Positions 2,787 through 45,833 of a DNA stretch of 64,000 nucleotides are shown in pieces (position 1 is the first letter of the stretch; each line of letters opens with the position of its first letter). The DNA lies in the IMG/VR virus record IMGVR_UViG_3300027797_000016, positions 1 to 64,000 of that record. One strand, 5' to 3'. The notes below the pieces were generated by a model that saw only the letters and a program-made list of their open reading frames with translations, was not told where the DNA came from and ran no database searches. Both the position numbers and the translations under genes were made by a program. Origin of the DNA: a virus.

Positions 2787-3329
2787 ATGGAGACACGATT
2801 TAAGTTCTTGAATGAAATTGAAGGACTAGAAGATTTCACAAACTATGCAGTAGATACTCTAGGTAATGTTTGGTCCTTTAAGAATAATAAACAGAAAATA
2901 CTTAAACATAACTGGAGATATAAGAGTAAAGGCAACTCTTATGGTAAATGCATTGCTCTAATGAGTAATAAAGGAAAGAGAAAACCATTCACGATACAAA
3001 GATTAGTTGCTATTGCCTTTATTCCAACTGATGACACAAATCGTAAAGTCAGACACATTAACGGAGACTTAAATGATAACAGTGTGCCTAATCTAGAATG
3101 GACTTATCCTATTCCCAAAAGAAAAGAATCTGAATATAAACAAACAAAGGTTAAGGTAGACAACTTTATCATTGAAAAAGATTTACTGAATAAGATTAAA
3201 CAAGTTCACACTGCATCTATACTGAAAGGTTTACCAGTTCCTGATACAAATGCCTTTCTGAATAATATAGTTGAAGGATCATTGGATGAGTATATTATGA
3301 GATATGGATTAAGGCGTTTAATGATATAA
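2787..3329 (+). CDS. HNH endonuclease-like protein (NUMOD4/HNH)
   Basis: YAVDTLGNVWS, IQRLVAIAFIP, VRHINGDLNDNSVPNLEW; the only convincing plus-strand gene. Confidence 0.85.
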   Translation: METRFKFLNEIEGLEDFTNYAVDTLGNVWSFKNNKQKILKHNWRYKSKGNSYGKCIALMSNKGKRKPFTIQRLVAIAFIPTDDTNRKVRHINGDLNDNSVPNLEWTYPIPKRKESEYKQTKVKVDNFIIEKDLLNKIKQVHTASILKGLPVPDTNAFLNNIVEGSLDEYIMRYGLRRLMI

Positions 3330-17053: not shown

Positions 17054-17139
17054 TTGTGTTTTATTGATTACCTTATTATAGGGCATCAGGACGCCCAATG
17101 GTGGAAGTATGGGACACTTCAACAAGTGTCCTTTGAGAA

Positions 17140-17211
17140 TAGGAATACCAAGATTCGAACTTGGATTTATCGCTTATCAAGCGATTATTCTAACCATTGA
17201 ATTATACTCCT
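17140..17211 (-). tRNA. trnI: tRNA-Ile(GAT)
   Basis: Cloverleaf; anticodon arm ATCGC-TTGATAA-GCGAT; TTCGAAT T-loop. Confidence 0.93.
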
Positions 17212-17245
17212 AAGAAAAACAGTAGAAACTACTGCTCGTTAAATA

Positions 17246-17401: not shown

Positions 17402-17443
17402 AATAAAGAAGATAATTGAATAATTTGGGAATAAAGTTCCCAA

Positions 17444-17515
17444 TAGTCCCAATGGGATTCGAACCCATATGCCCAGAATGAAAATCTGGTATCCTAACCC
17501 TTAGATGATGGGACC
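17444..17515 (-). tRNA. trnE: tRNA-Glu(TTC)
   Basis: Anticodon arm CCAGA-TTTTCAT-TCTGG; GGTCCCA/TGGGACT acceptor stem. Confidence 0.93.
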
Positions 17516-17518
17516 ATA

Positions 17519-17590
17519 CGACTCTAACGAGATTTGAACTCGTGATAATACCGTGACAGGGTATCGTGATGACCGCTTCACTATAGAGTC
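17519..17590 (-). tRNA. trnD: tRNA-Asp(GTC)
   Basis: Anticodon arm ATACC-CTGTCAC-GGTAT; GACTCTA/TAGAGTC acceptor stem. Confidence 0.93.
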
Positions 17591-17598
17591 AATGGATG

Positions 17599-17629
17599 AA
17601 AAAAGGGATACTCATACAAGCACCCCTTT
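17599..17629 (-). terminator. Intrinsic terminator or 3' hairpin of the tmRNA coding piece
   Basis: GGGGTGCT-TGTATG-AGTATCCC followed by TTTTTT. Confidence 0.75.
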
Positions 17630-17798
17630 CATATAAGTTTTGGATGAGAAGGAAACTTATAGAACCCCCTTCACTCATTTAGAGTCAAACTGCAACAGGT
17701 GCGGAATGACGAGTGAAATTGACAATGTTGTTGCCTTTTGTTTGTTTGTTCCGTCAACAGATAAGAACTTTATGCTTTATCGAAACCAGTGCATCCCC
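17599..17798 (-). ncRNA. ssrA: tmRNA, coding piece of a circularly permuted (two-piece) gene
   Basis: 5' end GGGGATGCACTGGTTTCGA; tag frame 17735-17685 GNNIVNFTRHSAPVAV*, like cyanobacterial ANNIV..F.R..APVAA tags; pseudoknot and terminator hairpin downstream. Confidence 0.92.
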
Positions 17799-17799
17799 G

Positions 17800-17874
17800 T
17801 GGCGAAGGGTTAGAGACTTGAACTCTAATCTTTGGTTTTGGAGACCAAGGTGCTACCAATTGCACCAACCCAAC
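17800..17874 (-). tRNA. trnW: tRNA-Trp(CCA) with encoded CCA and two U-U mismatches in the acceptor stem, inside the tmRNA intervening segment
   Basis: Anticodon arm TTGGT-CTCCAAA-ACCAA; T-arm TAGAG-TTCAAGT-CTCTA; acceptor GTTGGGT/ACCCTTC. Confidence 0.85.
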
Positions 17875-17960
17875 GTAATGCTATGTGATTGTGAATCCAA
17901 ATTAAGTTAGACAAAAAAGATGCCCCACTGCAATCTTTTTCTTAACTTAAACCATAGCGA

Positions 17961-18019
17961 TGGAGATGTGGAGAATCGAACTCCAGTCTAAAACATCAGT
18001 AATCTCATCCTCTTGAACT
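17961..18019 (-). ncRNA. ssrA: tmRNA, acceptor piece of the permuted gene
   Basis: GAC-TGGAG-TTCGATT-CTCCA-CATCTCC-A pairs with GGGGATG including G3:U70; ATGTTTTA and GATGAG pair with TAAAGCAT and CTTATC of the coding piece. Confidence 0.92.
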
Positions 18020-18023
18020 TTTA

Positions 18024-18031
18024 TATTTAGT
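18024..18031 (-). promoter_or_regulatory. T4-like late promoter candidate for the tmRNA precursor
   Basis: ACTAAATA immediately upstream of the acceptor piece. Confidence 0.65.
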
Positions 18032-18105
18032 AATATGTGTTTATATTACTAGGAGACTATAAGGGCAACTACCATTCCCATTAGCAATAGAAATCAAACA
18101 CACAG

Positions 18106-18194
18106 CAGAAGTGGTTGGATTCGAACCAACGGATGCCCTAAAGAACATCAAAGGATTAGCAATCCTCCGCATTAGACCTCTCTGCCACACTTCT
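18106..18194 (-). tRNA. trnS: tRNA-Ser(GCT)
   Basis: Anticodon arm GAGGA-TTGCTAA-TCCTT; long variable arm; AGAAGTG/CACTTCT acceptor stem. Confidence 0.93.
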
Positions 18195-31555: not shown

Positions 31556-32263
31556 CTAATGTTTTTTAATTCTACCTCTTTCCCAACCATCACCTGGACA
31601 TTCTACACCTCTTTTTTCAATTTGTCCATTATTCCACCATAATTTTCCTTTCATATTTTCTCTATTTTTTCCCCCAATTTTTTGTTTTGTTTCCTCCGTA
31701 TGTTTTTTTCCATACATTGCATTTTTTTCTCCTCTATTTGCTTCACTTATTTTTTTCCTAACTTCTGGTCTTTGAGAAACTCCCGCCAATCTTAATTTTT
31801 GTTTTGTTTCTTCTGTAAATTTTCTACCTAATGCTTTTTTTCTTATTTTTTCTTTTGTTTCTCCTGTGTGTTTTCTTCCTTTAGATTTTTCCCCTATCTT
31901 AATTTTTGCCTTTTCCGACAAACTCCATCCTGTTCTTTTTATATTACTTTTTATTACTGCTTGTCTTTGTGTTTCGGTAAAAATATATCCACTTACACCT
32001 TCTCCTCCACCAGTTCTATTATGGAGAATACCAGTTCCTAAATCTTTTCTACCAAAGACAGCAATCATATAGATTTCGTGCTTGAATGCTTCTTCTTCAG
32101 TAAGATTTTGTTTTAGGAATATGATACGATTTTTATCTTTAGGAACATATATTCCTTTTTGATGTTTTTCATATAATCTGTTTCCTCCACCTTTACCAAC
32201 ATAATAAGGAGTTCTGTTCTCACGCAAATATGCATAAGTATAAAATCTTTTAGGATTTACCAT
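31556..32263 (-). CDS. Free-standing homing endonuclease (GIY-YIG-like with NUMOD3 repeats)
   Basis: YTYAY...PYYVGKG, EIYMI..ILHNRT.GG, repeated HTEETK.KI, WWNNG. Confidence 0.88.
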   Translation of the reverse strand: MVNPKRFYTYAYLRENRTPYYVGKGGGNRLYEKHQKGIYVPKDKNRIIFLKQNLTEEEAFKHEIYMIAVFGRKDLGTGILHNRTGGGEGVSGYIFTETQRQAVIKSNIKRTGWSLSEKAKIKIGEKSKGRKHTGETKEKIRKKALGRKFTEETKQKLRLAGVSQRPEVRKKISEANRGEKNAMYGKKHTEETKQKIGGKNRENMKGKLWWNNGQIEKRGVECPGDGWERGRIKKH

Positions 32264-32365
32264 TTCTACTCTTAAACTGACTGCATTATTATTTATATTA
32301 AAAAGGAGTAGATTTCTCTACTCCCACCTTACAGATTGCAGTCAGTTAAGGCATCATTATTTAGT
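32264..32365 (-). promoter_or_regulatory. Dual late promoter / antisense small RNA / terminator module 1
   Basis: CTAAATA 32358-32364, arm 32337-32350, hairpin 32305-32324, TATAAATA 32290-32297, complementary arm 32271-32285. Confidence 0.8.
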
Positions 32366-35300
32366 ATTAGTACCTAAAAGTGGTTTGCTAAACATATTAA
32401 AATACTGGTAAAACTTCAACTTTTTTGCATCCTTGATATTCTACCACATTTTTCCAGAAAAAGGCACTCTCAACATCCAGAAATACTACTGATTGCTTAC
32501 TGAACTGACCTTTCTTTTTGGGTTTGAGGTAGACAACACTATATTTCATTTTATTTTTTCTCCCCATACCCATTTTGTTTCTCCTGTTGGATTTGGATGT
32601 AGTTCATAATATTCTTCCTCACCCAATCTTCTATAAACATAATGAGTTCCATCCTCTCTTTCACAAACATATTCACACTTATGTGGTGAATATAATCGTG
32701 CCTCAATTATTTTGTCTTTTAGATTTAACATCGTAATCAATTATAATTCTTTTATGTTCAGTATAAGAGTCTGTGCAGATATAACACTCTAACTTACCAC
32801 CAAGTTCTTCTACAAGTTCATTCAGTTTTTCTTTTTGTTCTTCAGTCATTTTTTGCAATCTAAGAAATAAGAATACCTTGCACTATTATCAGGTGTATAT
32901 CTTACAACATCACATTCCTTATATGCATCCACCACCTCAAACTTTTGCTCTGGTGGTGATGGTTGTGATTCTAACCAGTTCGCAGCACCATTTATAAGGA
33001 ATGAAAGTGCTGCAATTCCTACAATAATAACAATAATACTTTTCATTCTTCTACCTCCCAAGGGGATTTGCGGTTCATAAGTTTTTTCAAACTCTCTATT
33101 TGTTTTGGGTCTGGGTTGTTTATTTTTTCAACCAGGGTATCATAATCCCTCGCAGAAAGCAAGATGCGTTCTGGTTTTGCTCCCTTACCCCAGAACTTCT
33201 CAAACTCCCACTTGTAGTTCATATCCAACCACCCACCATTTAAGGAAGACCAGAATGAAACCCAGATATGATAATCATCAAATCTAAATCCCTGATGAGA
33301 CATCAAACGATACCACCACCAGAAACTTGAGTATTTTAGATAACGATTAGAGATTATCCATTTGTTTAAGAACACTGGAAGGTTCATTTTTTCCACTCAT
33401 ACATTTCACACCACCCATTACTCAATTCCGTCCAAAAAGCATTAGGAAGTTTATAAGAATACTTCATATCTCTCATCCAATATGTATATGCTTCCCAAGC
33501 ATATCCTACACCAATCCAACCACAAAGAAAGTCATACCATTTCGTATTTCTATACACAAAAAGATTATTAGTATCAAATGGGTTCCACCGAAAATAAGGT
33601 TTGAACTCATAAGAATGAAAATCTACATACTTATCGTATTCTTTTTGAGTGTAGTTCTTATATCGTTCAAAGAGGTTCATTTTCCTCCTCCCAATCAATC
33701 TCAACGGTTTCTGATTGTTCTACATTAGTATAAGGCATCGGATTACCATTCCCTGTTACATCTTCATATATTGTTTCAAACATCCAGTTACAAGCAAAAC
33801 TCTCAAATGCTTCTTGAGTTGGTTCTTCCTCAAATAGTTCTTCTGTGGGAGTGAATGTGAGAGTTCGGGTGTATGTGACTGTGACTGCTTTGAGTGGGAT
33901 TTTCATTTTAGGTTCTCCAGTTCCTGTTTGATTTGTTTGAGGTTCATTCCTGCCCAAATATCAAGGGCAATATCTGCTTTTTGAATTGCGGTCCAGAGTT
34001 TAGGATAATTCCTCCAATCCACAACATCCTCATCAATTGCTATAAGCAAATCAAGAATACAGATTTTATAGAGTTTTTCTGTTTCAGTCATTTTCCTTCC
34101 AGTTCATCAAGAATACCAGCAGCATAAGAACCAAAGTCAATCTCACCCAACGCTGTATCACCACAATACTCGGGCACATTCTCCATCATAAATTCATCAA
34201 GATAAAGAAACACACGAATTGCTCTGCGTTTATCGTGCTCGGTGATTATGGTATGAGGTTCCGCAATAGTTTTCGCAACCATATCAAAGAGTTCGTCTAT
34301 AGTAAGTTTCATTTGCTATTTGCGAATTGTGTATGAGTGTATTATAAGGCATCTGGTGGGGTTTTGGTGGGGTCTTGTGCCAGTTCGTCAGGTGTCTCAT
34401 CACTCAAAGAAATGCGGAGATTATCCCCCCCAATATGAAGGTGGAATATCCTCCCATCATTCAAGTATATTCCGCACCAATACACATCTTCCGTCATATT
34501 TTCCCAATGGACCATCTTCACATCTTCTAACACAAACTCATCAGGATTGGTAAGTCTTTCGGTCATTGATAGGGATTGGGTAGATTTTTGATGATTTCAG
34601 TAAAGAAAGCAAGACGGTCTTTGGTATAAGCGACATCAACTCCGTGTGTCTCACAGAGTTTCATAATCTTTTTACTCTTTTCGTTGTAAAAAGAATATCC
34701 CTCAAATTGCCCATACTCAACATCATCAATAAGTGATTCCTTCATCACCTCAAATAACTGAAATAATTCTTGTTGAGAGAGTTCTACTTGTCGTCCAGTT
34801 TGTTGGTGCCCGTTGAATGTGATTTTCATTTCAATTTACTCCATACAATTCCAAAATCCTTTTCGCAACAACAATAGAAAGTTCTTTGTTCCCAATAGAC
34901 ATATCTTCGGTGATGTTTTTAGAACCTTCTTCAAGTCCTCGTTCTCCAGATTTTATGTAAACTCCACCATTATCTGCTTGGAGTTCCACCCGATAAGTCA
35001 TTCCTTCTGCCTCATCAGTATATTCGTAGCAGTCGGTGGTACTATGAAGAATTTGAGTTCCGGGAACGATATTGTAAGGTTGAAAAGTCATTAGGTTTCT
35101 GTGTGTATGAGTGTATTATAATGCATCCAAGTCACCACCGGGTCTTTCGTGTGCCTCTTTCATAAGTGTCTCCGTTCTCTTGAGGAACTCATTACCTTGT
35201 GCTTCAATCAAATCGGCAAGGTTATTCAAATCTTCTACTGGAATACTGTCCTTCATACCATACTTACGGGCAAAGGCATAGATTGCTGATTTTAATGCGA

Positions 35301-35474
35301 GAGATTGTAAATGTTCCATAGAAATTGGACCTCCGTGTGGAAGACCAGCACAAGTATCGTTGTAGTATTCGTTATATCGATCCAACAAAAGCATTTTCTT
35401 TCATCAAGATAAATCAATTATACAACAAAAGGCACCTAAAATCAAGTGCCCTTGTGCCAGTTCTTCAAGCGTCC

Positions 35475-36254
35475 TTATGATATTCTAACTCTTTTGGAAG
35501 TATCTATTCCCCGTGCCCTTTGGTATTTTGCGAGATTACCAGCGTTTGTAATAAATCCAGTTTCTGTACACATCCATCTATGAGAATTTGCTTTTTTGCT
35601 ATTAATACTTCGTTCCTCAAAAGTAAGTGAATGAACTCCTATACCATCTTCATAACATTTTTTTCCTATTTCTCTTCTCTCTTCAATTGTTAAAGAATGT
35701 ATTCCTACACCATTTTCATAATTTTTTATTCCTATTTCTCTCAATTGTTCAGTAGTAAAGGAATGAACTCCTACACCATCTTCATAACATTTTTTTCCTA
35801 TTTCTCTTTTCTCTTCAATTGTTAAAGAATGTATTCCCTTCCCATCTTCATAACTTTTTTGTCCTATTTTTTTGCTTAATTCACTTCTTTCTTCTTGTGT
35901 TAAAGAAAAACAAGCATTTTTATTTTTATAAAGATTTTTTCCATTTTTTCTTCTTGTATCTAACGAAAAATTTCCACTACAACTTTCATTTAAGCACCAC
36001 TTATCAACATTATAAAATGGTTTTATTAATTGCCCCTCAATTTTTTGTGCGTGTTTCCAACCTTCATCAGTATAATCAAAAAGTTGTAATGTTTGTTTCT
36101 TTGGAGTATAAAGTTCCCAACACCACTTATGAGTTTTAGGAGAACCCACATAGTACTCACCAAACTTTTTCTCCTTATGAACTCCATAATAATAATACAA
36201 AACTTCCTCAAAGGTAATTTTATATGTGTATATTCTTGGACTTTGTGAAGTCAT
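35475..36254 (-). CDS. Free-standing homing endonuclease (Seg-like GIY-YIG with tandem repeats)
   Basis: IYTYKIT...YYYGVH...YVGS, CLNE; about five GIHSLT.EE.REIGKK repeats. Confidence 0.85.
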   Translation of the reverse strand: MTSQSPRIYTYKITFEEVLYYYYGVHKEKKFGEYYVGSPKTHKWCWELYTPKKQTLQLFDYTDEGWKHAQKIEGQLIKPFYNVDKWCLNESCSGNFSLDTRRKNGKNLYKNKNACFSLTQEERSELSKKIGQKSYEDGKGIHSLTIEEKREIGKKCYEDGVGVHSFTTEQLREIGIKNYENGVGIHSLTIEERREIGKKCYEDGIGVHSLTFEERSINSKKANSHRWMCTETGFITNAGNLAKYQRARGIDTSKRVRIS

Positions 36255-36360
36255 AGTTCTGCTTTATGGTGTGTCGTATTACTATTTATACAAGAAAAGG
36301 TGCCCGAAAGCACCTAATCTCCGCTTCTGGTTACGACACACATAAGCATCTTTATTTATG
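36255..36360 (-). promoter_or_regulatory. Dual late promoter / antisense small RNA / terminator module 2
   Basis: ATAAATA 36353-36359, arm 36332-36347, hairpin 36298-36315, TATAAATA 36283-36290, complementary arm 36261-36278. Confidence 0.8.
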
Positions 36361-39300
36361 AGTAATTGTAATGTAAATGTGTTTCCCAAGTAAAGAATGG
36401 TTGGTCACGACGAGCAATCATTTCTACAATATAATCCGGAACCAGTTTACCATACTTTTCCATAAATTCATCTTCTGTTGGTTGTTCCAATCCTTGCATA
36501 TAATAATCAGCACCTTCACCAACAAACTTCTCAAAATAACAAAGGTCGTGGTCTTTATCACCAATCGGTAGATAGTTACGGCAAATCTTCAACCAATAAA
36601 ACCTACCTTCCCCAGTCGCAACATAATCAATAGCAAAGAACCTGTAAAATGGTCTTTTATTTTCTGCTTCTCTTTCGGCAGCAATATCAAGCATTTCATC
36701 AAGTGTAAGGTCAGTCATAATGCCTCCAATTCATCAGCAAGTTTAAGAATGTCTTTTACATTTACAACACCAATTCCGTGGTCTCCATCTACACTAAAGT
36801 TCCAGTATGAAAGTTCTGTTACTAATGTTCTCAATACGGCAGCAAACTCATAATGTGTTTTTTTAACCATAGGGTCTCTACCCTCACGAATAAGTTTCCC
36901 AAGAGTGGGAGAACCTTCGGCAACATTTCGTGCTGCTGCTATAATTTTTTGTGCTGTTTCAGTCATTCAGTTTCTCCGCAAGTTCTTCTGTGGTGTATTT
37001 TTCTCCATCAAAATTGAAAAAGGTTCTATCTTTTCCAAGAACTTGATGTTCGTAATAAGTTTTTCCAGAGACTTGTGGAAACTCACCATTCACTTTTTCT
37101 TTTATATAGTTGATGTCTCCAATATAGTCGTCACAATCAAGACTACCCGTAAATTGTTTTGGATGATTGTTCATAAACTTCACAGTTGCTTCTACCAAAC
37201 TCATATCAGGTTTTGTGGATACTAACTGAAATCCAAAGCGGGCAAGTAGTTTGTTGAATAGGTCAATCATTTTCCCCGACCTTCATTTTAGTAATAACAT
37301 AATGAAATTGAGGTTTGCCTTCCTCATCCAAAATATCCTCTCCAGGACACATATAAAAGATGATTTTAGCACCACTCGCAAGTTGTTCTTCAATACCTTC
37401 CATCGTTCTATATGTTCCAGTTCTCATATATTCTGGAAGTGAATTGAATGCGTCCTCAAGGATTTTTATTTGTTCTTGTGTAAGGTTTCTTTCAGTCATT
37501 AGAGTTTCTCCAGTTCATCTCTCAATTTAGCAAGTTCTTTTACATCAATAATAGAATAATATGAATCTTGTGGATTTGGATATTGTGTAAGTCGAATTAT
37601 AATTTCTGTGATACTTTGGCAAAGTGCTTCTTTCATATCATCTGTTGGTTCTTGTCTAAGTCCTCCACAAAACTCATCCCAAACTAATTGTGCTCTTTTG
37701 AGGTCAGTCATTTTTCTAACCTTTCAGTAATATTTTCAAAAGAACTATAATCATAAGAAGTTGGTTGTCCCATTCTCAATTTCCCATCAGTATAAGAATG
37801 TTTATGAATTACCATCTTCCCCCCAAGTCCAACGAAGTCAATCAGTATTCTATCACATTCATAGAATTCTTTGAGATATTGTGATACTTTTACATAATCT
37901 ATGGGTTTAGCAGTCATTTTTCTGTTTTTCCATAAGTTCTTTCAATTTTTGTTTAGCATAATCCGTGAGTTCTCTTTTTGACTTTCTCAACTCGTCAATT
38001 TCACTTTGAGATAGAAGGAACCCGTCTGGGATATTCCCGTATTCTTCACTCATCTCTTATATCCTTGAACCATTGGGCGAATTTAATCCATTCTTTATCA
38101 TTAAATGCTTCTGAACGATTGGCAGCACTGTAATCTTGGTTCCCATTTTCAGCACAAAATTTATGAAATGCGTGTTTAATCTCACACATCATAAGGTATC
38201 GGTGCATATTAACCATTTCGCATATTTGGGCATCAGTCATACTTCCCACGCATAAGATTTCAGGAGTTCGTTGTCTCTTTCAAGTGTCTCAATTTTATCA
38301 TACAAATCGTCAATAATTTCAATCAAAGCACAATAGTCAATACTTTCAATATCAGCACCATTTTCCATATCGGCATAGGTGTAATAAGACAATTGCTGTT
38401 TTAGGTTGCGTTCAGTCATTTGTTTTTTTGTTTCTCAAAGTATTCAGTAAGTCCTTCAACTGCTCCAATAGAAAAGGCAATCCAACCTGGAGACAATACC
38501 CAAATCCAACTCCAATCAATAGTGTGAGTTAGTTTAGCACAAATAAAAAGAAAGAGCAAACTTTCAAAAATGCCGATTTTGAGTTTGCCGATTTTGATTG
38601 GGTTCATTTCAGTTGTCCTCCTTCAAACGAATATTGCCTTCAGTATCACCACACATAGAATAGAAAGCATCTTCAGCAATAGAACGCAAGAATGTATCAT
38701 AGTCATTTTGTGTGGGTTCCCCTTCTTGTCCGGATGTTTCCTCTTCCCACATTTTCAAGAAATCATCTACGGAAAGTGTGAATTCACGGGGAATGTATGC
38801 GACTTTGGGAATGATGTGATTAGTCATAATGTGTTTGTGTATGAGTGTATTATACAGGATTTCCGTCAATAAACATAGGGTGATTTGGATAAGAACTCCT
38901 AACCATCATCACCCTAATCATAAGAGAACCATAACTCCCAGATTGTTTCATAGGAGTTCCCTTTCTGGTGTGGTTCCAAGATAGAACAGACATAATCAAT
39001 CTCCAAGACTACCAGACCTTACACTATCCACACCAGATAACCACCCATCATTATAACCATTTTTACCACCATCTTCCCATCCATCATCATAACCAACACC
39101 ATATGCTTTATCAGCAACCGCAAGAGCAAACTTTACAGCAACCTCACGAAAGGCATTATTCATAGCACCAGTCATAACACCAGCACCAAGAGTATTCATT
39201 CCAAACTGGGTTCCATCACCCCAGAGTTCAATAAGTTCTTGTTCAGTCATCAGGTGTTTGTGTGTATGAGACTATTATAAGGCATCCAGAGGCACCCAGA

Positions 39301-41576
39301 GCATCCCCTGTGCCAGTTCTTCAAGTGTCCTCACCCAAGTTCTTATAAATCGCATCCATCCATATCTTATCAAAATATTTCCTGTCTTCATCAGTAATCA
39401 TATTTGCTCTCATATACTCTTCAAGTGTGATGTTATTATCATCCAAGTATTTTTGGAGTTCTTCAAGGTTTATAGACATAAACCTCAAAGGTTATTTTAT
39501 TCATATGGTCTCCAAATTCCATATTCATACTTACTACCTGTGCTTTTCCTGTTTGGATTTGTCCTGCTACTTGTTGAAAAGAAGTTTTCAAATCATCAAG
39601 GTCATAAGATTTGAGTATTGGAGGTTTTGATTTCTTCAGTTCATCTGCAAATGTTTCTTCACCCTCATAATCTTCTATTCTTGGAAATTTTGGTTTCTCT
39701 TTCTTTCCGTAAAGTTCCTCATATTTTTGTAGTAAAGGGTTCATCATTCTAAAATAATATCACAACCATCGTTTCGTAAGTTCAACGACCACACAGATTT
39801 TACCACATTTGATAGATTATTACCAACACTCATCCACACCTCAAAATCCTCACCATACTCATTTGTATCAGGAAGAACACTCAAGATTTCTTTGAGTTCC
39901 CGAATGGTGAGTGCGTCAGTTGTGAATGGTTGGTTTCTTATATCAGTCATTTCTCACACCGATGTAATGGAATACGAAGAAACTGAAAGAACCTTCCAGT
40001 CCATCCTATCATATCTCCACATTTAGGACAACAATACGATGGGTAGGTCATTTCAATCCAATCAGTTTAGCAAAATCAGGAGTGATAGTAAGGTTTTGTT
40101 CTCTTACAAGATTACGAACTTCCTTACGAAGATTTATCCACTTGCTGTAGTAATCTTGTGATGCTTTTTGTGCTCTGTTTTTAGCATCAAAGTCGCACTG
40201 GTGCTCGTAAGTTCTGGTTTCGTAGTATCTCATTTTTCATCCACCCAGAAAAATCCAAGAAGATTTTTCATACAAAAACGGATTACAAAATTCGGTTTAG
40301 TCGGCATATAATACCTGAAAGACCTACAATTACCGAATGTATAATATCCTTCGTGGTCATTTCCTTGTTTAATTACAAAACTGGAAGTAATATTACTACC
40401 AGTCGCAATAAGGTTAGAATATGTAAGTTTAGGTGGAAATTGTCCGTGTTCCTTCGCATACTCAAAGTTATCAATAATTCTATTGAACTTTGTATCATAC
40501 AAAGTTTCAGCAATATACTTTGACTTATAAAAACTATTCTTTGTTCTCTCAATCAAATCATCAATCTTCTCATCCAATTCTTGCGATATTTCTTCCAGAG
40601 TTTTACAAGGTTCAGGTATATCAAGATAATCTTTGATTACATCAAAATACTCATAATCTTCGGTGAAATAAAAACAACCAAGAATATAAGGAAGAACACT
40701 TTGAGGTGCTCCTTTCAGTTTCTCTGGATTGAGTTTATATCCTGATGGTCCTATTTTTAGTGTTGGTTCAGTCATTTCAAATACCTGCGTCAGCATCAAT
40801 AGTGAATTCTGCTTTGTCTGTGATAATCTCTACACTCATATCATTCATAATGTCGGCAATCAAATCCCTTACCCTCTCCCTTGACTTGTGAGTATATACT
40901 CCATTCCAGTTTGATACCATTAGAGAGTGGTTGAAAGTATCAATAATAACTGCAAGTTCGTGTGCTGTGATTTTCATTTGTTCTTCACCCAGTTACAATC
41001 AAAAAATACTTTAGACCAGAACCTTACCCAAGCATTAGGAACTTTACCTTCTTGTGGCACCCAAGTCATAGGAGAAAAACTAGCATCACCACCAAACGCA
41101 TAACAAGTCCAGTTAGATAGTTTTGGTTGTGTGATAGTATATGTGTTTGATTTATTGTAATCAGCAGGAAAAGTATATTCAGTATATTCAGTCATCGTAT
41201 TCCAATTTTGAGAGTGCCTTTCAGTTCATTATAAAGTCCATTCAATCCCTGTCTCCTATCATTATCAGTTACATCAAGAATATGATACAATAGTCGTGCC
41301 TGTTCTTCGTCCAGTGTGATTTTGTAGTTCTTTTGAATTTCAATCATTTTGGGCAGTGGAGAAAATATTTGTATTCAGAAAGCATATTATATTGCCATTG
41401 AACTAAATCACAACCTTTGTATTCACTGACAACTGTAAAAGTTCCATGTTTCTCAACTGGTTCTGCAACTGCTTGTGCTTCTGGTTGTTTGAAACTCTCA
41501 AGAATAGCAGGCACCATAAAATACAGACAAGCAAGACAAAATCCAGTAAGTAATCCAAGTGCGTATTGTGGGTATC

Positions 41577-42326
41577 TCATCGTAGTTTCCTCTTGATTTT
41601 ATTGAGACAATCGTTGAAACCTTCTACAGTACACTCAACATAAGCATTTTGAGACCCAGCGGCAGATTGTTCTTTCGGCAACCATTCTTCAATGGCATCC
41701 ACAAGTTCCTGAAGTGATGTTTCTTTCTTGGTGAATGTATCATCCCACCAGTCAGCAATCACATCATAAAGAGTTTGTGGTTTGGTAGATGAAACTACAC
41801 CTTGCTTGACTGCTTCCCTGAATGCTTCTTTCAATCCATCAGCAACTTGCTCTGGTGTTTGAGGTTTCAAACAATCTAATGGGTCTTTATCTGGATTTTC
41901 TTCACACCATTTCTTACTCTCACGAACAGCATCTTTTATTTGTTGTCCTTTCCCATAAGTAAATACCGCCCACCTAAACCAAGCAGCAGGAGAAAGTTCA
42001 TAATAACCATCACTCAAATATCCACTCAACTTTTCACCAAAACGAAGAGCAACAGATTTCCATTCATTATCTTCTTGTTCTTCTTGAACTTTTTCCATTA
42101 CTTCCTTTGCGGTAGAGATTGCGTAAGCAAACTCATATCCTGCTTGGAAACCTTGCCACCTTGTATCATCATACTGGGAGTCAGTTTCTAATTCAGGATA
42201 TTGCCCCCACCAATCTTTGTAGCATTCTTCTACTGGTGATTTTGTTCGTTGCTGTTCTTCAAGTTTTTGTAGTTTCTCTTGGAGAATAGCAATATCCTCT
42301 TTGAGTTGTTGAATAGTTTCAGTCAT
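41577..42326 (-). CDS. Mosaic hypothetical protein
   Basis: Contains modules shared with 44315 (PQTP..V..GL) and 51805 (G(F/Y)N.C). Confidence 0.7.
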   Translation of the reverse strand: MTETIQQLKEDIAILQEKLQKLEEQQRTKSPVEECYKDWWGQYPELETDSQYDDTRWQGFQAGYEFAYAISTAKEVMEKVQEEQEDNEWKSVALRFGEKLSGYLSDGYYELSPAAWFRWAVFTYGKGQQIKDAVRESKKWCEENPDKDPLDCLKPQTPEQVADGLKEAFREAVKQGVVSSTKPQTLYDVIADWWDDTFTKKETSLQELVDAIEEWLPKEQSAAGSQNAYVECTVEGFNDCLNKIKRKLR

Positions 42327-43505
42327 TTCAAGTTCTCCCTTGCTTTGCGAGCAGTATCATAAAGTTCCCGAAGTCGTTGCGACCTCTCCTCTCGTTTTTT
42401 GACTTGTTCTGGACTATTATGCCACACACTATCAGTTCCGTGTAAAGGGCAATCTGGATTGAGGTTTTGAGTGTTTGAAGTTTTGGTTCCTATTTGAATG
42501 TAGGAACAGGTGCATTTGGTAGTCATACATCCTCCATATCAAAACTCATATCATATTTTGGTAGTGGTTGTCCTGCTACATTATAGCACCAATCACAAAA
42601 GTTCATACTCTCTACCATATCAACATCCCATCCACAACACTCCACAGCACTATGAAGTGTGGAAAGAAACTCTGGTGTGAGAAGTTCTTTGAGTTCTTGT
42701 TTCGTCATCGGTTCATCCAGTCTCTCAAATCAACAATTTCATACCAGTCATACCTATACTTTTGTTTTGATATTTCCTCCCATTTTTCTTTTGCTTCCTC
42801 TTTGGTTTCGTAGCATTCAATCCAATCATCAGTATAGGCAGAAGGATAATAGTTGTCTCCAGCAATCAATAGATAAGGTTTCATCGTTCAGCAACCACAT
42901 CGTTGATAGTGAGCAAAATCACTCAAACTGGTGCTACCATATTCTACAACACCATCAAGTAAGCAAAGGTAGTTCATTTCAGTTGCTCCAAGCAAATAGA
43001 ACAGAGACAATCATCAGTTTTAGGAACTCTAAACATAATATGGTTTCCAGAGCAACAATCTCTATCACCACATTTTCTACATTCATCACAAACCCACTCC
43101 TTTTGATTACGACATTTTACGAAATCTTCAAGAGTGTATTGTTGGAGAATAGAAGTCATTCTAATACATCAGTAAGTTTGTTATACATCCAAGAGATTAT
43201 GAGTGCCTGTCCCCAAGTAAGAGGAAAGAAAGATACAAGTGCCCAACCCATCAATCCCACAAAAATATAAAATCCAATTGTTTCACCAATCTCTTGTTTA
43301 GTCATTTGAGGTTCCTCATCAATCGTGCGTAAGAATAATTCCAAGTAGAAGGGTCTTCTGGGTCAAAAGGGTTCTTGTATTCTTTTGGTTCATAAGGTTC
43401 TGGTGTATATTGGAAGAATTTAGAAGCAATATAAGAACCAAGACAAGGAAACAGAAAGCAAAGAAGAGCAGATGTAAGGGTCATCAGGGTTGTTTGTGTA
43501 TGAAA

Positions 43506-43566
43506 CTATTATAAGGCATCAGGGCACCGAGTTCAAGTGCCCTGTGCCGGTTCTTCAAGTGTCCCC
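43506..43566 (-). promoter_or_regulatory. Early promoter cassette (stem-loop subtype), representative copy
   Basis: GGGACAC..CCGGCACA boxes, TTGAAC-17-TATAAT; AGGGCAC/GTGCCCT inverted repeat around -35. Confidence 0.88.
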
Positions 43567-44585
43567 AACAGAGTTGAGAGCAAGACCAATTCTACTAATT
43601 TTATTTTCTAAACTATTGTAATACTGATAAACATAATTATCATCAAGATTATCATTTTTTGCTTTCCTCACAAGAGCAAGCAAATCGTTAATCTCATAAT
43701 TACTAAAGGGTTCTACCGTCCATTCACCGATAGATACAACTTTTTTAGTCATCAGGTGTCTTTGTGTGTATGAATGTATTATAAGGCATCTGGTGCCCCT
43801 GTGGAGTGGTGTCTGTGCCAGTTCGTCAAGTGTCCTCTGCTCTTCAAGGATTATTTCAAAAATCATTCTGGTGTAGCTTTCTGTTGCTCCCCAGTGTCTT
43901 GCTAATCTTATAATGTCTTTATGTTTATTAGTCATCCCCATAAACCTCAAAGATAATTTTTGCTCCACCCATTACATCCCTTTCCATACTCATACTCAAC
44001 ACCTGTGCCCTACTAGTTTGGAGTTGTTCTGCTACTTGTTGAAAAGATACTTTCAAGTCATTAGGGTCATAACATTTTGCGAGTTTTCGTAGTTTTGATT
44101 TCTCTACTGGTTTTGGAGGTTCTGGTGGTTTTGGATTATGGATTTCATTATATTTTTCAATTAGTGGATTAGTCATTTTCTTTACAATACCTTTGATATT
44201 CCCAATGATGAACCATTTCTACAAGGTCTTTGGTAACTAAACAATCTTCATTATCTTTAATTTTATCCCAATCAATAGGATTTTTTTCACTCCATTCTTC
44301 GTAGGTTAGTTTAGTCATTTGTTCTTCACCCAGTTACAATCTAAAAATACTTTCATAAAAAACCTCACCCAAGCATTAGGAACTTTACCTTCTTCTGGTG
44401 TCCAAGTGATAGAAGAAAATGAGGCATTACCACCAAAAAGGTAGCAGGTATAGTTAGATTGTTTTGGTTGGTGAATAAAAAGATAATCGTTGGGAATTGG
44501 GAATACACCATCTTCCTTTGCTTGTTTCATAGCACCACGAAGTCCAGCATCTACTTCATCTGGTGTTTGTGGCGTTGGTTGATAT

Positions 44586-45056
44586 TCAGTCATAAGGAAT
44601 CCATTCAGCAAAACTAAAGATATACGCAAGTCCCCATTCTAATGTATGAGGTGGTAGTTCGTCAATATGATTAAACGCAAGTCGTCTTGCTTCCAAGATG
44701 CGTTCTTTACCTACCGCAAGTAGATTTGCTTTAGAACCTTTGAGAAACTCATTATAATCTGCCTGATTATTCTGTTTCGCACCAGAGATATACAATCGTC
44801 TCATTTCAGTAAAAAGTTCTGCGGTTTCGGGGGCAAATGTAATCACTTCTTCCCCCAAAGGGATTTCCATAGTTTTCATCGCACTCATTGAAAATTTCAT
44901 CGCATCTCTGGTTTCTTCTACTGATAAGGCATCCTCATCCTCATCACGAAACTTATGTTGTATTATACCGTTACTGCACTCAACTAATCTTAAAAGAGCA
45001 ATCTTGTCCTTCTCAGAGTCAGGTAGTGCTTGAAATCTTGCGTCCCAGTCAATCAT
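44586..45056 (-). CDS. Hypothetical protein (probable start MIDWD)
   Basis: ORF track; ATGA overlap with the endonuclease stop. Confidence 0.7.
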   Translation of the reverse strand: MIDWDARFQALPDSEKDKIALLRLVECSNGIIQHKFRDEDEDALSVEETRDAMKFSMSAMKTMEIPLGEEVITFAPETAELFTEMRRLYISGAKQNNQADYNEFLKGSKANLLAVGKERILEARRLAFNHIDELPPHTLEWGLAYIFSFAEWIPYD

Positions 45057-45724
45057 TTTCTTCCAAGTCTCCAACCATCACCGGGACATTCTACCATCCT
45101 TTTACAATTTCCGCAACCATCATTCCACCACTTTTTACCTTTTCGTGTCTCACTCATTTTTCTTCTGGTTTCTTTGGAAAGGATTTTACCTTTTCGTGTC
45201 TCACTCATTTTTCTTCTGGTTTCTTCTGAAACAGGTCTGCCTTTAAGACCTTCAATTATTTTATCTATATGCTCTTTTGAGAGAGTTTTACCAATTTGTG
45301 ACTCACTCATTTTTCTTCTGGTTTCTTCCGAATGAATTTTACCATAGTTATGATTTTTTTCCCCTCTCCTTGCTTCACTCATTTTTTTTCTAGTTTCTTC
45401 TGAAGGGGTTCTTTCTCTCATTTTTTTTCTGGTTTCTTCACTAAAAACATAACCAGAAGCACCATCACCACCATCTGTAAGGTTGTGAAGAATACCAGTT
45501 CCCAAATCTTTCCTACCAAACACAGCAATCATATAGATTTCGTGTCTAAATGCTTCTTCTTCTGTTAAGTTTTGTTTGAGGAATATAATTCTTGATTTAT
45601 CTTTGGGTGGGTTATTTCGTCTGTTTGTAGAATAAATCCTATCTCCAGTACCTTTACCAATATAATAAGGTGTCTTATCTTCACGCAAATATGCGTAAGT
45701 GTAAAACCTATTAGGATTTACCAT
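45053..45724 (-). CDS. Free-standing homing endonuclease (GIY-YIG-like with NUMOD3), paralog of 31556..32263
   Basis: MVNPNRFYTYAYLRE..PYYIGKG; repeated SEETRRKMSE. Confidence 0.88.
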   Translation of the reverse strand: MVNPNRFYTYAYLREDKTPYYIGKGTGDRIYSTNRRNNPPKDKSRIIFLKQNLTEEEAFRHEIYMIAVFGRKDLGTGILHNLTDGGDGASGYVFSEETRKKMRERTPSEETRKKMSEARRGEKNHNYGKIHSEETRRKMSESQIGKTLSKEHIDKIIEGLKGRPVSEETRRKMSETRKGKILSKETRRKMSETRKGKKWWNDGCGNCKRMVECPGDGWRLGRK

Positions 45725-45833
45725 AGTTCTGCTTCTAAATTGTGTTCGCAATACTATTTATACAAGAAAAGGTGCCCGAAGACACCCTTCCCACTCTTAT
45801 GGATGCGAACACATTAGAGCACCAGTATTTATC
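45725..45833 (-). promoter_or_regulatory. Dual late promoter / antisense small RNA / terminator module 3
   Basis: ATAAATA 45826-45832, arm 45804-45820, hairpin ~45769-45789, TATAAATA 45755-45762, complementary arm 45731-45750. Confidence 0.8.

Follow-up and report, generated by a model that had tools for sequence, protein, structure and literature searches.

Three probable control modules on the minus strand of the window

We analysed a window of 64,000 nucleotides (nt), positions 1 to 64,000 of the IMG/VR record IMGVR_UViG_3300027797_000016. The complete record is 105 kb in size, and the window is a fragment of a T4-like cyanomyovirus; among named phages, the freshwater Synechococcus phage S-SRM01 is its nearest relative. 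On the minus strand of the window, three modules of about 105 nt (32365-32261, 36360-36252 and 45833-45722) are located immediately upstream of three open reading frames (ORFs), two of which are homing endonuclease genes (HEG1 and HEG3) while the third, ORF2, is a presumed member of the same functional class. In the 5' to 3' direction, each module starts with an octamer of the form N[A/C]TAAATA (P1), which resembles a late promoter, followed by 5 nt, a 5' arm of 15-17 nt and a short stretch complementary to it, which together form a stem-loop, here called stem-loop 1 (SL1). Then follow a GC terminator hairpin with a U run, the late promoter motif TATAAATA (P2), 4-5 nt, and a 3' arm of 17-20 nt that can pair with the 5' arm, apart from one or two bulges, and ends 5-6 nt before the ATG. 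An earlier inspection of the letters alone, hereafter the sequence-only reading, had claimed a control module with this order of elements at three sites, and all three are present where it placed them. It had also described an AAG..G(T/C)GG linker between the 5' arm and the terminator; this segment exists, but it is not a mere linker since it pairs with the beginning of the 5' arm and thereby provides the 3' strand of SL1.

In module 1, a late-type promoter motif, P1 (ACTAAATA, 32365-32358), forms the extreme 5' end of the cassette. The 5' arm (32352-32337) is contained within SL1 (32352-32326), which is followed by the terminator hairpin (32325-32304) with its U run, by P2 (32297-32290), a late promoter motif within the loop, and by the 3' arm (32285-32269), which would be the leader in the late mRNA and is separated by 5 nt from the ATG at 32263. 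The duplex between the two arms has a free energy of -21.6 kcal/mol. A transcript initiated at P1 is predicted to be 53 nt long (32352-32300), with a minimum-energy fold of two adjacent hairpins that begin at nt 1. Module 2 has P1 (CATAAATA) at 36360-36353, where the TAA doubles as the stop codon of the upstream ORF 36718-36356, followed by the 5' arm (36347-36332), SL1 (36347-36323), the terminator hairpin (36315-36298) with a U run, P2 (36290-36283) and the 3' arm (36278-36261), which ends 6 nt before the ATG at 36254; the predicted P1 transcript is again 53 nt (36347-36295). The corresponding positions in module 3 are 45833-45826 for P1 (GATAAATA), 45820-45804 for the 5' arm, 45820-45793 for SL1, 45762-45755 for P2 and 45750-45731 for the 3' arm, which ends 6 nt before the ATG at 45724. 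Here, the terminator hairpin is extended and reaches 45767, with a predicted P1 transcript of 54 nt (45820-45767). The calculated free energy differences (ddG) for pairing in trans between the P1 transcript and the leader were -13.3 and -18.6 kcal/mol for modules 2 and 3, respectively.

The arrangement is not a product of chance. The folds of the three modules were more stable than those of dinucleotide shuffles (z = -5.8, -4.4 and -4.7), and 0 of 200 shuffles were equally stable. The hexamer TAAATA is depleted across the window, with 46 occurrences against an expectation of 74, and shows a strong coding-strand bias; in the segment from about 28 to 50 kb it occurs only six times on the minus strand, exactly at the six module sites. 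Pairs of TAAATA on the same strand at a distance of 40-85 nt were found at 7 places in the 105-kb genome, 4 of which are modules, all with arm duplexes in the range of -21 to -24 kcal/mol. The fourth module (genome position 84666-84556, outside the window) precedes an HNH gene. A covariance model built from related copies gave exactly three matches in the window, and a generic terminator scan picked up two of the three module terminators.

Related modules and the pairing of their arms

To collect related modules, we scanned IMG/VR for exact patterns of the terminator-P2 core of copies 2 and 3, which yielded at least 118 stretches representing at least 84 distinct modules. The covariance model and a second detector, for which P2, a T run and a pair of complementary arms were sufficient and which thus did not depend on P1, contributed further modules whose terminator hairpins were of at least seven other kinds, raising the total to at least about 103 distinct modules; all counts given below out of 98, 99, 102 or 103 refer to this collection. 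Among the cultured cyanophages, S-SRM01 contains six modules, B23 three and the marine phage S-B68 one. The covariance model identified no module in Syn9, S-PM2, P-SSM2 and P-HM2, which are model cyanophages with published transcriptomes, and a 27-bit match in S-RSM4 was discarded because it covered the terminator only. No match to the module was obtained in Rfam, either at the gathering score or at E<=1. We found no description of the cassette in the literature searched, and the S-SRM01 genome paper makes no mention of a promoter, terminator or hairpin. One 14.4 kb contig (L028, IMGVR_UViG_3300007735_000887) contains six covariance-model modules in 14 kb, and represents a very dense array of nuclease cassettes.

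The arms were divided into 17 classes. Duplexes between cognate arms had a mean free energy of -22.6 kcal/mol, as compared to -9.7 kcal/mol for non-cognate combinations, and the cognate partner ranked first in 17 of 17 classes. In the alignment of the arms, 94.9% of the cells were paired and 15 of the 17 pairs had changed on both sides. The covariation score was 0.47, whereas shuffles yielded 0.18 (0 of 500 reached the observed value) and sliding of the partner columns yielded scores of at most 0.06. These values bear out the suggestion in the sequence-only reading that the changes in the arms are compensatory, and indicate that pairing is under selection. The helix contained 52 G·U cells but only 8 A·C cells, an excess which indicates that selection acts on the sense-strand RNA and not on a DNA cruciform or an antisense transcript.

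This asymmetry bears on the possibility that the inverted repeat acts at the level of DNA, as a cruciform or as a recombination site, for example for the exchange of cassettes. The conserved core is clearly a substrate for recombination, nuclease ORFs have been swapped behind the same module at one locus, and one recombinant with swapped arms was identified, all of which would suit such a function. Yet, the G·U excess is expected only for a sense-strand RNA, the arms are interrupted by bulges and the helix is placed exactly over the mRNA leader, and we consider a DNA-level element to be extremely improbable. The near-identical core shared by the modules is about 45 bp long and could readily recombine, yet mismatched arms were found in a single module among the approximately 103, so mismatched recombinants seem to be removed. 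This natural recombinant (L130:304-408, plus strand) combines a 5' arm of class GCTTATGTGTGTCGCA with a 3' arm of class TGCGGTTTCAATAGAAT. The crossover is located inside the conserved terminator/P2 core, and the downstream HNH ORF is intact with 251 amino acids (aa).

The long-range helix spans positions of about -8 to -25, including the position of the Shine-Dalgarno sequence (AGAG or AAGC), and leaves the AUG and 5-7 nt free. The P2 motif is located 4-5 nt ahead of the 3' arm in all three copies in the window and in 101 of 102 modules. This layout matches the T4 device that combines a hairpin with an internal late promoter, as described for I-TevI, I-TevII, I-TevIII, segB and the Aeh1 mobE gene as well as for genes e, soc and 49 (PMC2988022, PMC3014915), and the silencing of I-TevI in T4 had been correctly named as a precedent in the sequence-only reading. 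In both systems the ribosome-binding region of a homing endonuclease gene is covered by a helix, here a predicted one, and TATAAATA is situated between the arms so that late transcripts are made without the 5' arm, with translation restricted to late infection as the presumed common aim. The cyanophage module differs in that it has a strong intrinsic terminator in the loop, an additional conserved promoter of the late type that precedes the 5' arm by 5 nt, and a 5' arm that itself forms the covarying SL1. Its helix begins with the first base (+1) of the late mRNA and leaves the last 5-7 nt ahead of the AUG uncovered, and many nuclease families share the entire unit, which is portable as a cassette. 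A cis-acting lock with an internal late promoter very probably operates in these modules.

A simpler control region precedes a GIY-YIG gene in the same genome (85842-85309, minus strand, outside the window), where the arms flank TATAAATA with neither P1 nor a terminator. The homologous GIY-YIG gene of phage Sf-CH5 (L160) has the same simple form, likewise devoid of P1 and terminator, and in both cases the 3' arm extends up to or into the ATG. The simple form is probably ancestral, and the complex module looks like its elaboration. Also outside the window (G000 87387-86659, minus strand), a 242-aa HNH-like ORF follows a tRNA-like 3' end and a bare TATAAATA with no arms.

The upstream promoter motif and the RNA it would produce

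Only one of the 103 modules lacked P1 (L098, which reads TATATAATA instead), and the 102 that have it include 22 with other terminators. In the cultured phages it was found in 6 of 6 modules in S-SRM01, 3 of 3 in B23 and also in S-B68. The hexamer TAAATA was invariant while the flanking bases varied on both sides, such that the octamer was ACTAAATA in 32 modules, AATAAATA in 30, GATAAATA in 15, TATAAATA in 15, CATAAATA in 6 and TCTAAATA in 4. Late promoters in the T4 family consist of an 8-bp element at positions -13 to -6, with (a/g)CTAAATA as the consensus in Aeh1, where (a/g)C occupies -13/-12 (PMC2988020). The P1 variants lie within the published range of consensus sequences for this family, and correspond to T4 with A at -13, to S-PM2 with NATAAATA and to Aeh1 with (a/g)C at -13/-12. 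The same octamer variants are also located 13-25 nt ahead of likely late genes elsewhere in the window.

P1 and P2 have a common downstream context, TAAATA-N4-T-R-C, with the T present in 88 of 98 modules for P1 and in 91 of 98 for P2, and with a purine 6 nt downstream of the hexamer in 96 and 98 of 98 modules, respectively. Since T4 late promoters occupy positions -13 to -6, the +1 position falls on this purine, and since the two start contexts belong to opposite ends of the helix, pairing of the arms cannot explain why they match. The extra upstream promoter postulated in the sequence-only reading is thus not a chance motif, as seen from its presence in nearly all modules, the N4-T-R-C context and a predicted +1 position that coincides with the base of the covarying stem-loop. 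Judging from these features, P1 is likely to be an active late promoter.

An explanation that acts purely in cis, with a terminator, an internal late promoter and a helix that sequesters the leader, would account for P1 in other ways: TAAATA could be retained for closing the upstream reading frame and marking the border of the cassette, or RNA polymerases that start from P1 and stop at the terminator could physically block P2. Indeed, in 57 of 102 contexts the upstream gene uses the TAA of P1 or a TAA at +4 as its stop codon, and comparisons with empty sites put the edge of the cassette at TAAATA. In the other 45 contexts, however, the upstream ORF ends earlier and the hexamer is still invariant in all six bases, so the role as a stop codon is real but does not explain the conservation. 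Nor does this explanation account for the T-R-C start context common to P1 and P2, and because T4-family late promoters need just the 8-bp element and no -35 element, a perfect and conserved match to it is unlikely to lack activity.

The stem of SL1 is formed by pairs such as ACCTGT/ATAGGT, GCTCTAATG/CATAAGAG, GCTT/AAGC and CCTTA/TAAGG. In 101 of 102 modules, the segment from 6 nt after P1 to the U run folded into two adjacent hairpins and no others, and in 94 of 102 pairing began with the 5th or 6th nt after TAAATA. The mean free energy for 39 distinct types of SL1 was -6.7 kcal/mol, compared to -2.8 kcal/mol for shuffles. SL1 competes with the long-range helix, which makes it a feature of the terminated RNA rather than of the read-through RNA, and a purely cis-acting device has no need for it. 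Under that explanation the short RNA would be a by-product with no function in trans, and SL1 a folding intermediate or a stabiliser of the 3' ends of terminated upstream mRNAs; the start of SL1 at the predicted +1 position and its covariation would then be left unexplained.

Together, P1, the terminator and SL1 predict an RNA of 46-59 nt (about 52 nt) with two hairpins that is complementary to the 5' end of the late mRNA. The loop of SL1 displays ..(G/T)TCGCA, which is complementary to the initial bases of the P2 transcript. Annealing of the predicted RNA to the P2 leader was favourable in 99 of 99 modules, with a mean ddG of -13.6 kcal/mol and a range of -7.6 to -19.6 kcal/mol. We infer that a discrete RNA of this size probably accumulates. 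That it also regulates in trans is a more tentative proposal, to which we would assign somewhat less than an even chance. An antiterminator formed by the 3' strands of SL1 and the terminator was considered and dropped, since by eye it fitted some arm classes only. Inspection of the P1 RNA for a conserved peptide revealed only short, non-conserved ORFs.

The sequence-only reading had suggested that the RNA is a gene-specific repressor or a partner of the nuclease. However, one arm class (ACCTGTAAGTCGCA) precedes genes of two GIY-YIG-like and three HNH families, each nuclease family carries many arm classes, and at a single genomic locus the same module is found with different nuclease genes. 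The address is hence a property of the module and not of the nuclease, and the sharing of arms across GIY-YIG and HNH proteins that are unrelated makes a role as RNA partner or guide of the nuclease protein unlikely. When the arms were compared to the 105-kb genome with up to 3 substitutions, no match was obtained besides the related copy 4 and their own partners, which argues against a guide RNA that targets other sites in this DNA.

A resemblance to type I antitoxins had also been suggested. As in type I toxin-antitoxin systems with an adjacent antitoxin RNA, a small RNA would be encoded beside a potentially toxic gene, here for a DNase, and would pair over 13-17 nt with the 5' untranslated region of its mRNA; there is a formal similarity to trans-encoded type I pairs such as ralR/RalA and zorO/OrzO. 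Type I toxins are small, usually under 60 aa, whereas the products here are large GIY-YIG, HNH and NUMOD3 proteins of 145-330 aa. Furthermore, both predicted RNAs have promoters of the same late class in a lytic phage, which offers no post-segregational setting. Taken together, we regard an RNA antidote to a toxic nuclease mRNA, or an RNA that serves the nuclease protein as guide or partner, as highly unlikely.

Other antisense systems offer partial parallels. In IS10, the loop of the RNA-OUT stem-loop pairs with the free 5' end of the transposase mRNA (RNA-IN) and covers its ribosome-binding region. Both there and here a mobile element would limit its own transposase or nuclease, but RNA-OUT is transcribed from the opposite strand over the same DNA, whereas the candidate in the cyanophages is encoded upstream on the same strand as one half of an inverted repeat. 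A late promoter followed by a terminator that gives rise to a short, potentially regulatory RNA is also known from the 6S RNA of the lambda PR'-tR' region and from StxS in Stx phages (PMC7547250). In those phages, transcription depends on the Q antiterminator to pass the terminator, and the RNA acts on host genes, whereas no antiterminator is apparent here and the predicted target is the leader of the cassette's own gene. In T4, no RNA that acts in trans has been characterised functionally (PMC3014915), which is in line with a device that acts in cis only.

To examine the specificity of the arms, we compared modules within and between contigs. Among 24 contigs with at least two modules, 1 of 43 within-contig pairs belonged to the same arm class, as compared to 13.9% of random pairs between contigs, and cross-duplexes of -17 kcal/mol or stronger were absent within contigs but amounted to 12% between contigs. 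The distinctness of arms on the same contig is not explained by a lock in cis and fits with the idea that cross-talk between the RNAs matters.

Cassette cargo, boundaries and proposed control

HEG1 (31556-32263, minus strand, 235 aa) and HEG3 (45053-45724, minus strand, 223 aa) both belong to a NUMOD3/homing endonuclease family (phrog_314), and HEG1 has a GIY-YIG-like N-terminus. ORF2 (35475-36254, minus strand, 259 aa) is a presumed homing endonuclease of an unrecognised family with the N-terminal pattern RIYxYKITF...YYYYG. It had no match in profile searches against Pfam, PHROG or PDB, and in a profile-profile comparison with the GIY-YIG/NUMOD3 family a C-terminal stretch alone was aligned, at a probability of 6.6%. 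The AlphaFold2 model of ORF2 was poor, with a predicted local distance difference test score (pLDDT) of 52 and values below 50 in the N-terminus. Its neighbours in a language-model atlas were NUMOD3/GIY-YIG clusters (score 0.94) and it acts as interchangeable cargo of the cassette; from this lead and the context only, ORF2 is presumed to be nuclease-like. The assertion in the sequence-only reading that the module precedes all three homing endonuclease genes is thereby correct for HEG1 and HEG3 but overstated for ORF2, which contains no recognisable nuclease domain. Neither do all nuclease genes carry a module: two ORFs in the window with similarity to HNH_3, 559-203 (minus strand, E = 1e-9) and the weaker 2787-3329 (plus strand, E = 2e-4), have neither a module nor a late-promoter motif upstream.

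Comparisons with empty sites in related contigs indicated that the left edge of the insert is TAAATA, or 0-4 nt before it, exactly at gene junctions. At the right end, the cassette provides either a replacement start for the downstream gene, as in copy 1, or a terminator followed by a sigma70-like promoter, as in copy 2. In the latter, a terminator hairpin located directly after ORF2 is followed by TTGATT-17-TATAAT (35453-35417, minus strand), both being consensus matches only, and this 3' end is likely to restart early transcription of the downstream phage genes. Another such motif, TGGACA-17-TAGAAT, is embedded in the 3' end of HEG1 (31628-31600). At cassette 1 the start of a phage gene has been split: a 12-codon stub, MFSKPLLGTNTK*, which terminates in the P1 motif, remains upstream (32395-32357), and the downstream gene restarts with a recoded copy, MIFSRALLGTDTKK (31544-31500). 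The same split-start pattern was observed when contig L047 was compared to the empty sites in L129 and L088.

In several contigs (L054, L057, L060, L099, L100 and L132, at the same locus as in L037, as well as L045 and L123), we observed solo modules in which the nuclease ORF has been deleted or truncated (e.g. MYYTYDY*) while P1, both arms, the terminator and P2 are intact. These modules directly adjoin the downstream phage gene.

Elsewhere in the window, a permuted two-piece gene for transfer-messenger RNA (tmRNA) of the cyanobacterial type is located at 17608-18034 on the minus strand (Rfam cyano_tmRNA, 93.5 bits; tmRNA_permuted, 85.6 bits). It lies in a cluster of tRNA genes for Ile, Glu, Asp and Ser (17139-17212, 17443-17516, 17518-17591 and 18105-18194); ARAGORN instead calls a tRNA-Trp inside the tmRNA gene (17800-17874).

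We propose that the module is a mobile 5' control cassette for free-standing homing endonuclease genes in T4-like cyanophages (Kyanoviridae). The cassette would insert at gene junctions, where its first bases, TAAATA, often would supply the stop codon of the upstream gene, and it would exert control in four layers. First, the intrinsic terminator would halt transcription arriving from the early genes upstream. Second, P2, a perfect T4-type late promoter located after the terminator, would start an mRNA with a short leader at the first base of the 3' arm, so that the nuclease is made only late. Third, a transcript that reads through the terminator would carry the 5' arm and fold into a helix of 13-17 bp over the leader, by which translation would be blocked. 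Fourth, P1 would produce the 5' arm as a separate RNA consisting of SL1 and the terminator hairpin, and annealing of this RNA to the free 5' end of the P2 mRNA may damp or delay translation of the nuclease late in infection. The second and third layers are the established T4 device of I-TevI, segB and mobE, to which the terminator in the loop, P1 and SL1 have been added. For this scheme in full, including the RNA that acts in trans, we see the prospects of its being right or wrong as about evenly balanced.

Several observations weigh against it. The lock in cis suffices on its own to explain the covariation of the arms, and it is an established paradigm for I-TevI, I-TevII, I-TevIII, segB and mobE. 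Simple modules that lack both P1 and a terminator exist, so P1 is not essential for the control of homing endonuclease genes, and since its TAA also ends the upstream gene in roughly half of the contexts, there is a second possible reason for its retention. The covariation in the SL1 alignment, which was made with MAFFT, was positive but weaker than for the arms, with 76% of the cells paired, and the difference between cognate and non-cognate SL1 duplexes was modest, with few distinct stem types. How strongly translation would be blocked is uncertain, since the helix leaves 5-7 nt in front of the AUG free and the Shine-Dalgarno-like element is a weak one. Distinct arms within contigs may have other causes, such as avoidance of recombination between repeats, collapse of repeats during assembly or relatedness among the contigs. 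Moreover, the promoters and terminators are consensus matches only, and many of the approximately 103 modules are related by descent, such that the counts do not represent independent events. With these points set against the features that a cis-only device leaves unexplained, such a device is a possibility that we take seriously without favouring it.

A further-reaching version of the four-layer proposal is that the P1 RNAs form a large family of orthogonal, addressed trans-repressors, one per cassette, and that the diversity of the arms and the scarcity of cross-reactive arms in one genome stem from conflicts among nuclease cassettes that reside in the same phage or meet in the same infection, and with their phage hosts. 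An RNA, including one from a solo module, could then silence the matching nuclease mRNA of a competitor in a mixed infection. This version is speculative and, in our judgement, unlikely; if true, it would represent a layer of RNA-based immunity in the warfare among homing endonucleases.

Should the small RNA be real, it would be the first trans-acting RNA candidate of this kind in T4-like cyanophages. It would also represent a new design of antisense regulator, in which the two halves of a cis-acting hairpin have been turned into separate transcription units that control a selfish nuclease, and the modules would constitute a ready-made library of orthogonal pairs of RNAs and leaders. With about 100 natural variants, occurrence in at least three cultured cyanophages and promoters of the T4 late type, the cassette is a concrete, abundant and testable candidate. 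Even if only the lock in cis operates, a complete and insulated expression unit moves as a whole and has been recombined with many nuclease genes at gene junctions. Its 5' end brings a stop codon, a terminator, a late promoter and a translational lock, and its 3' end either a promoter for restarting transcription or a new start for the gene downstream. This would explain how homing endonuclease genes can settle in early-gene regions that are densely packed while doing little damage.

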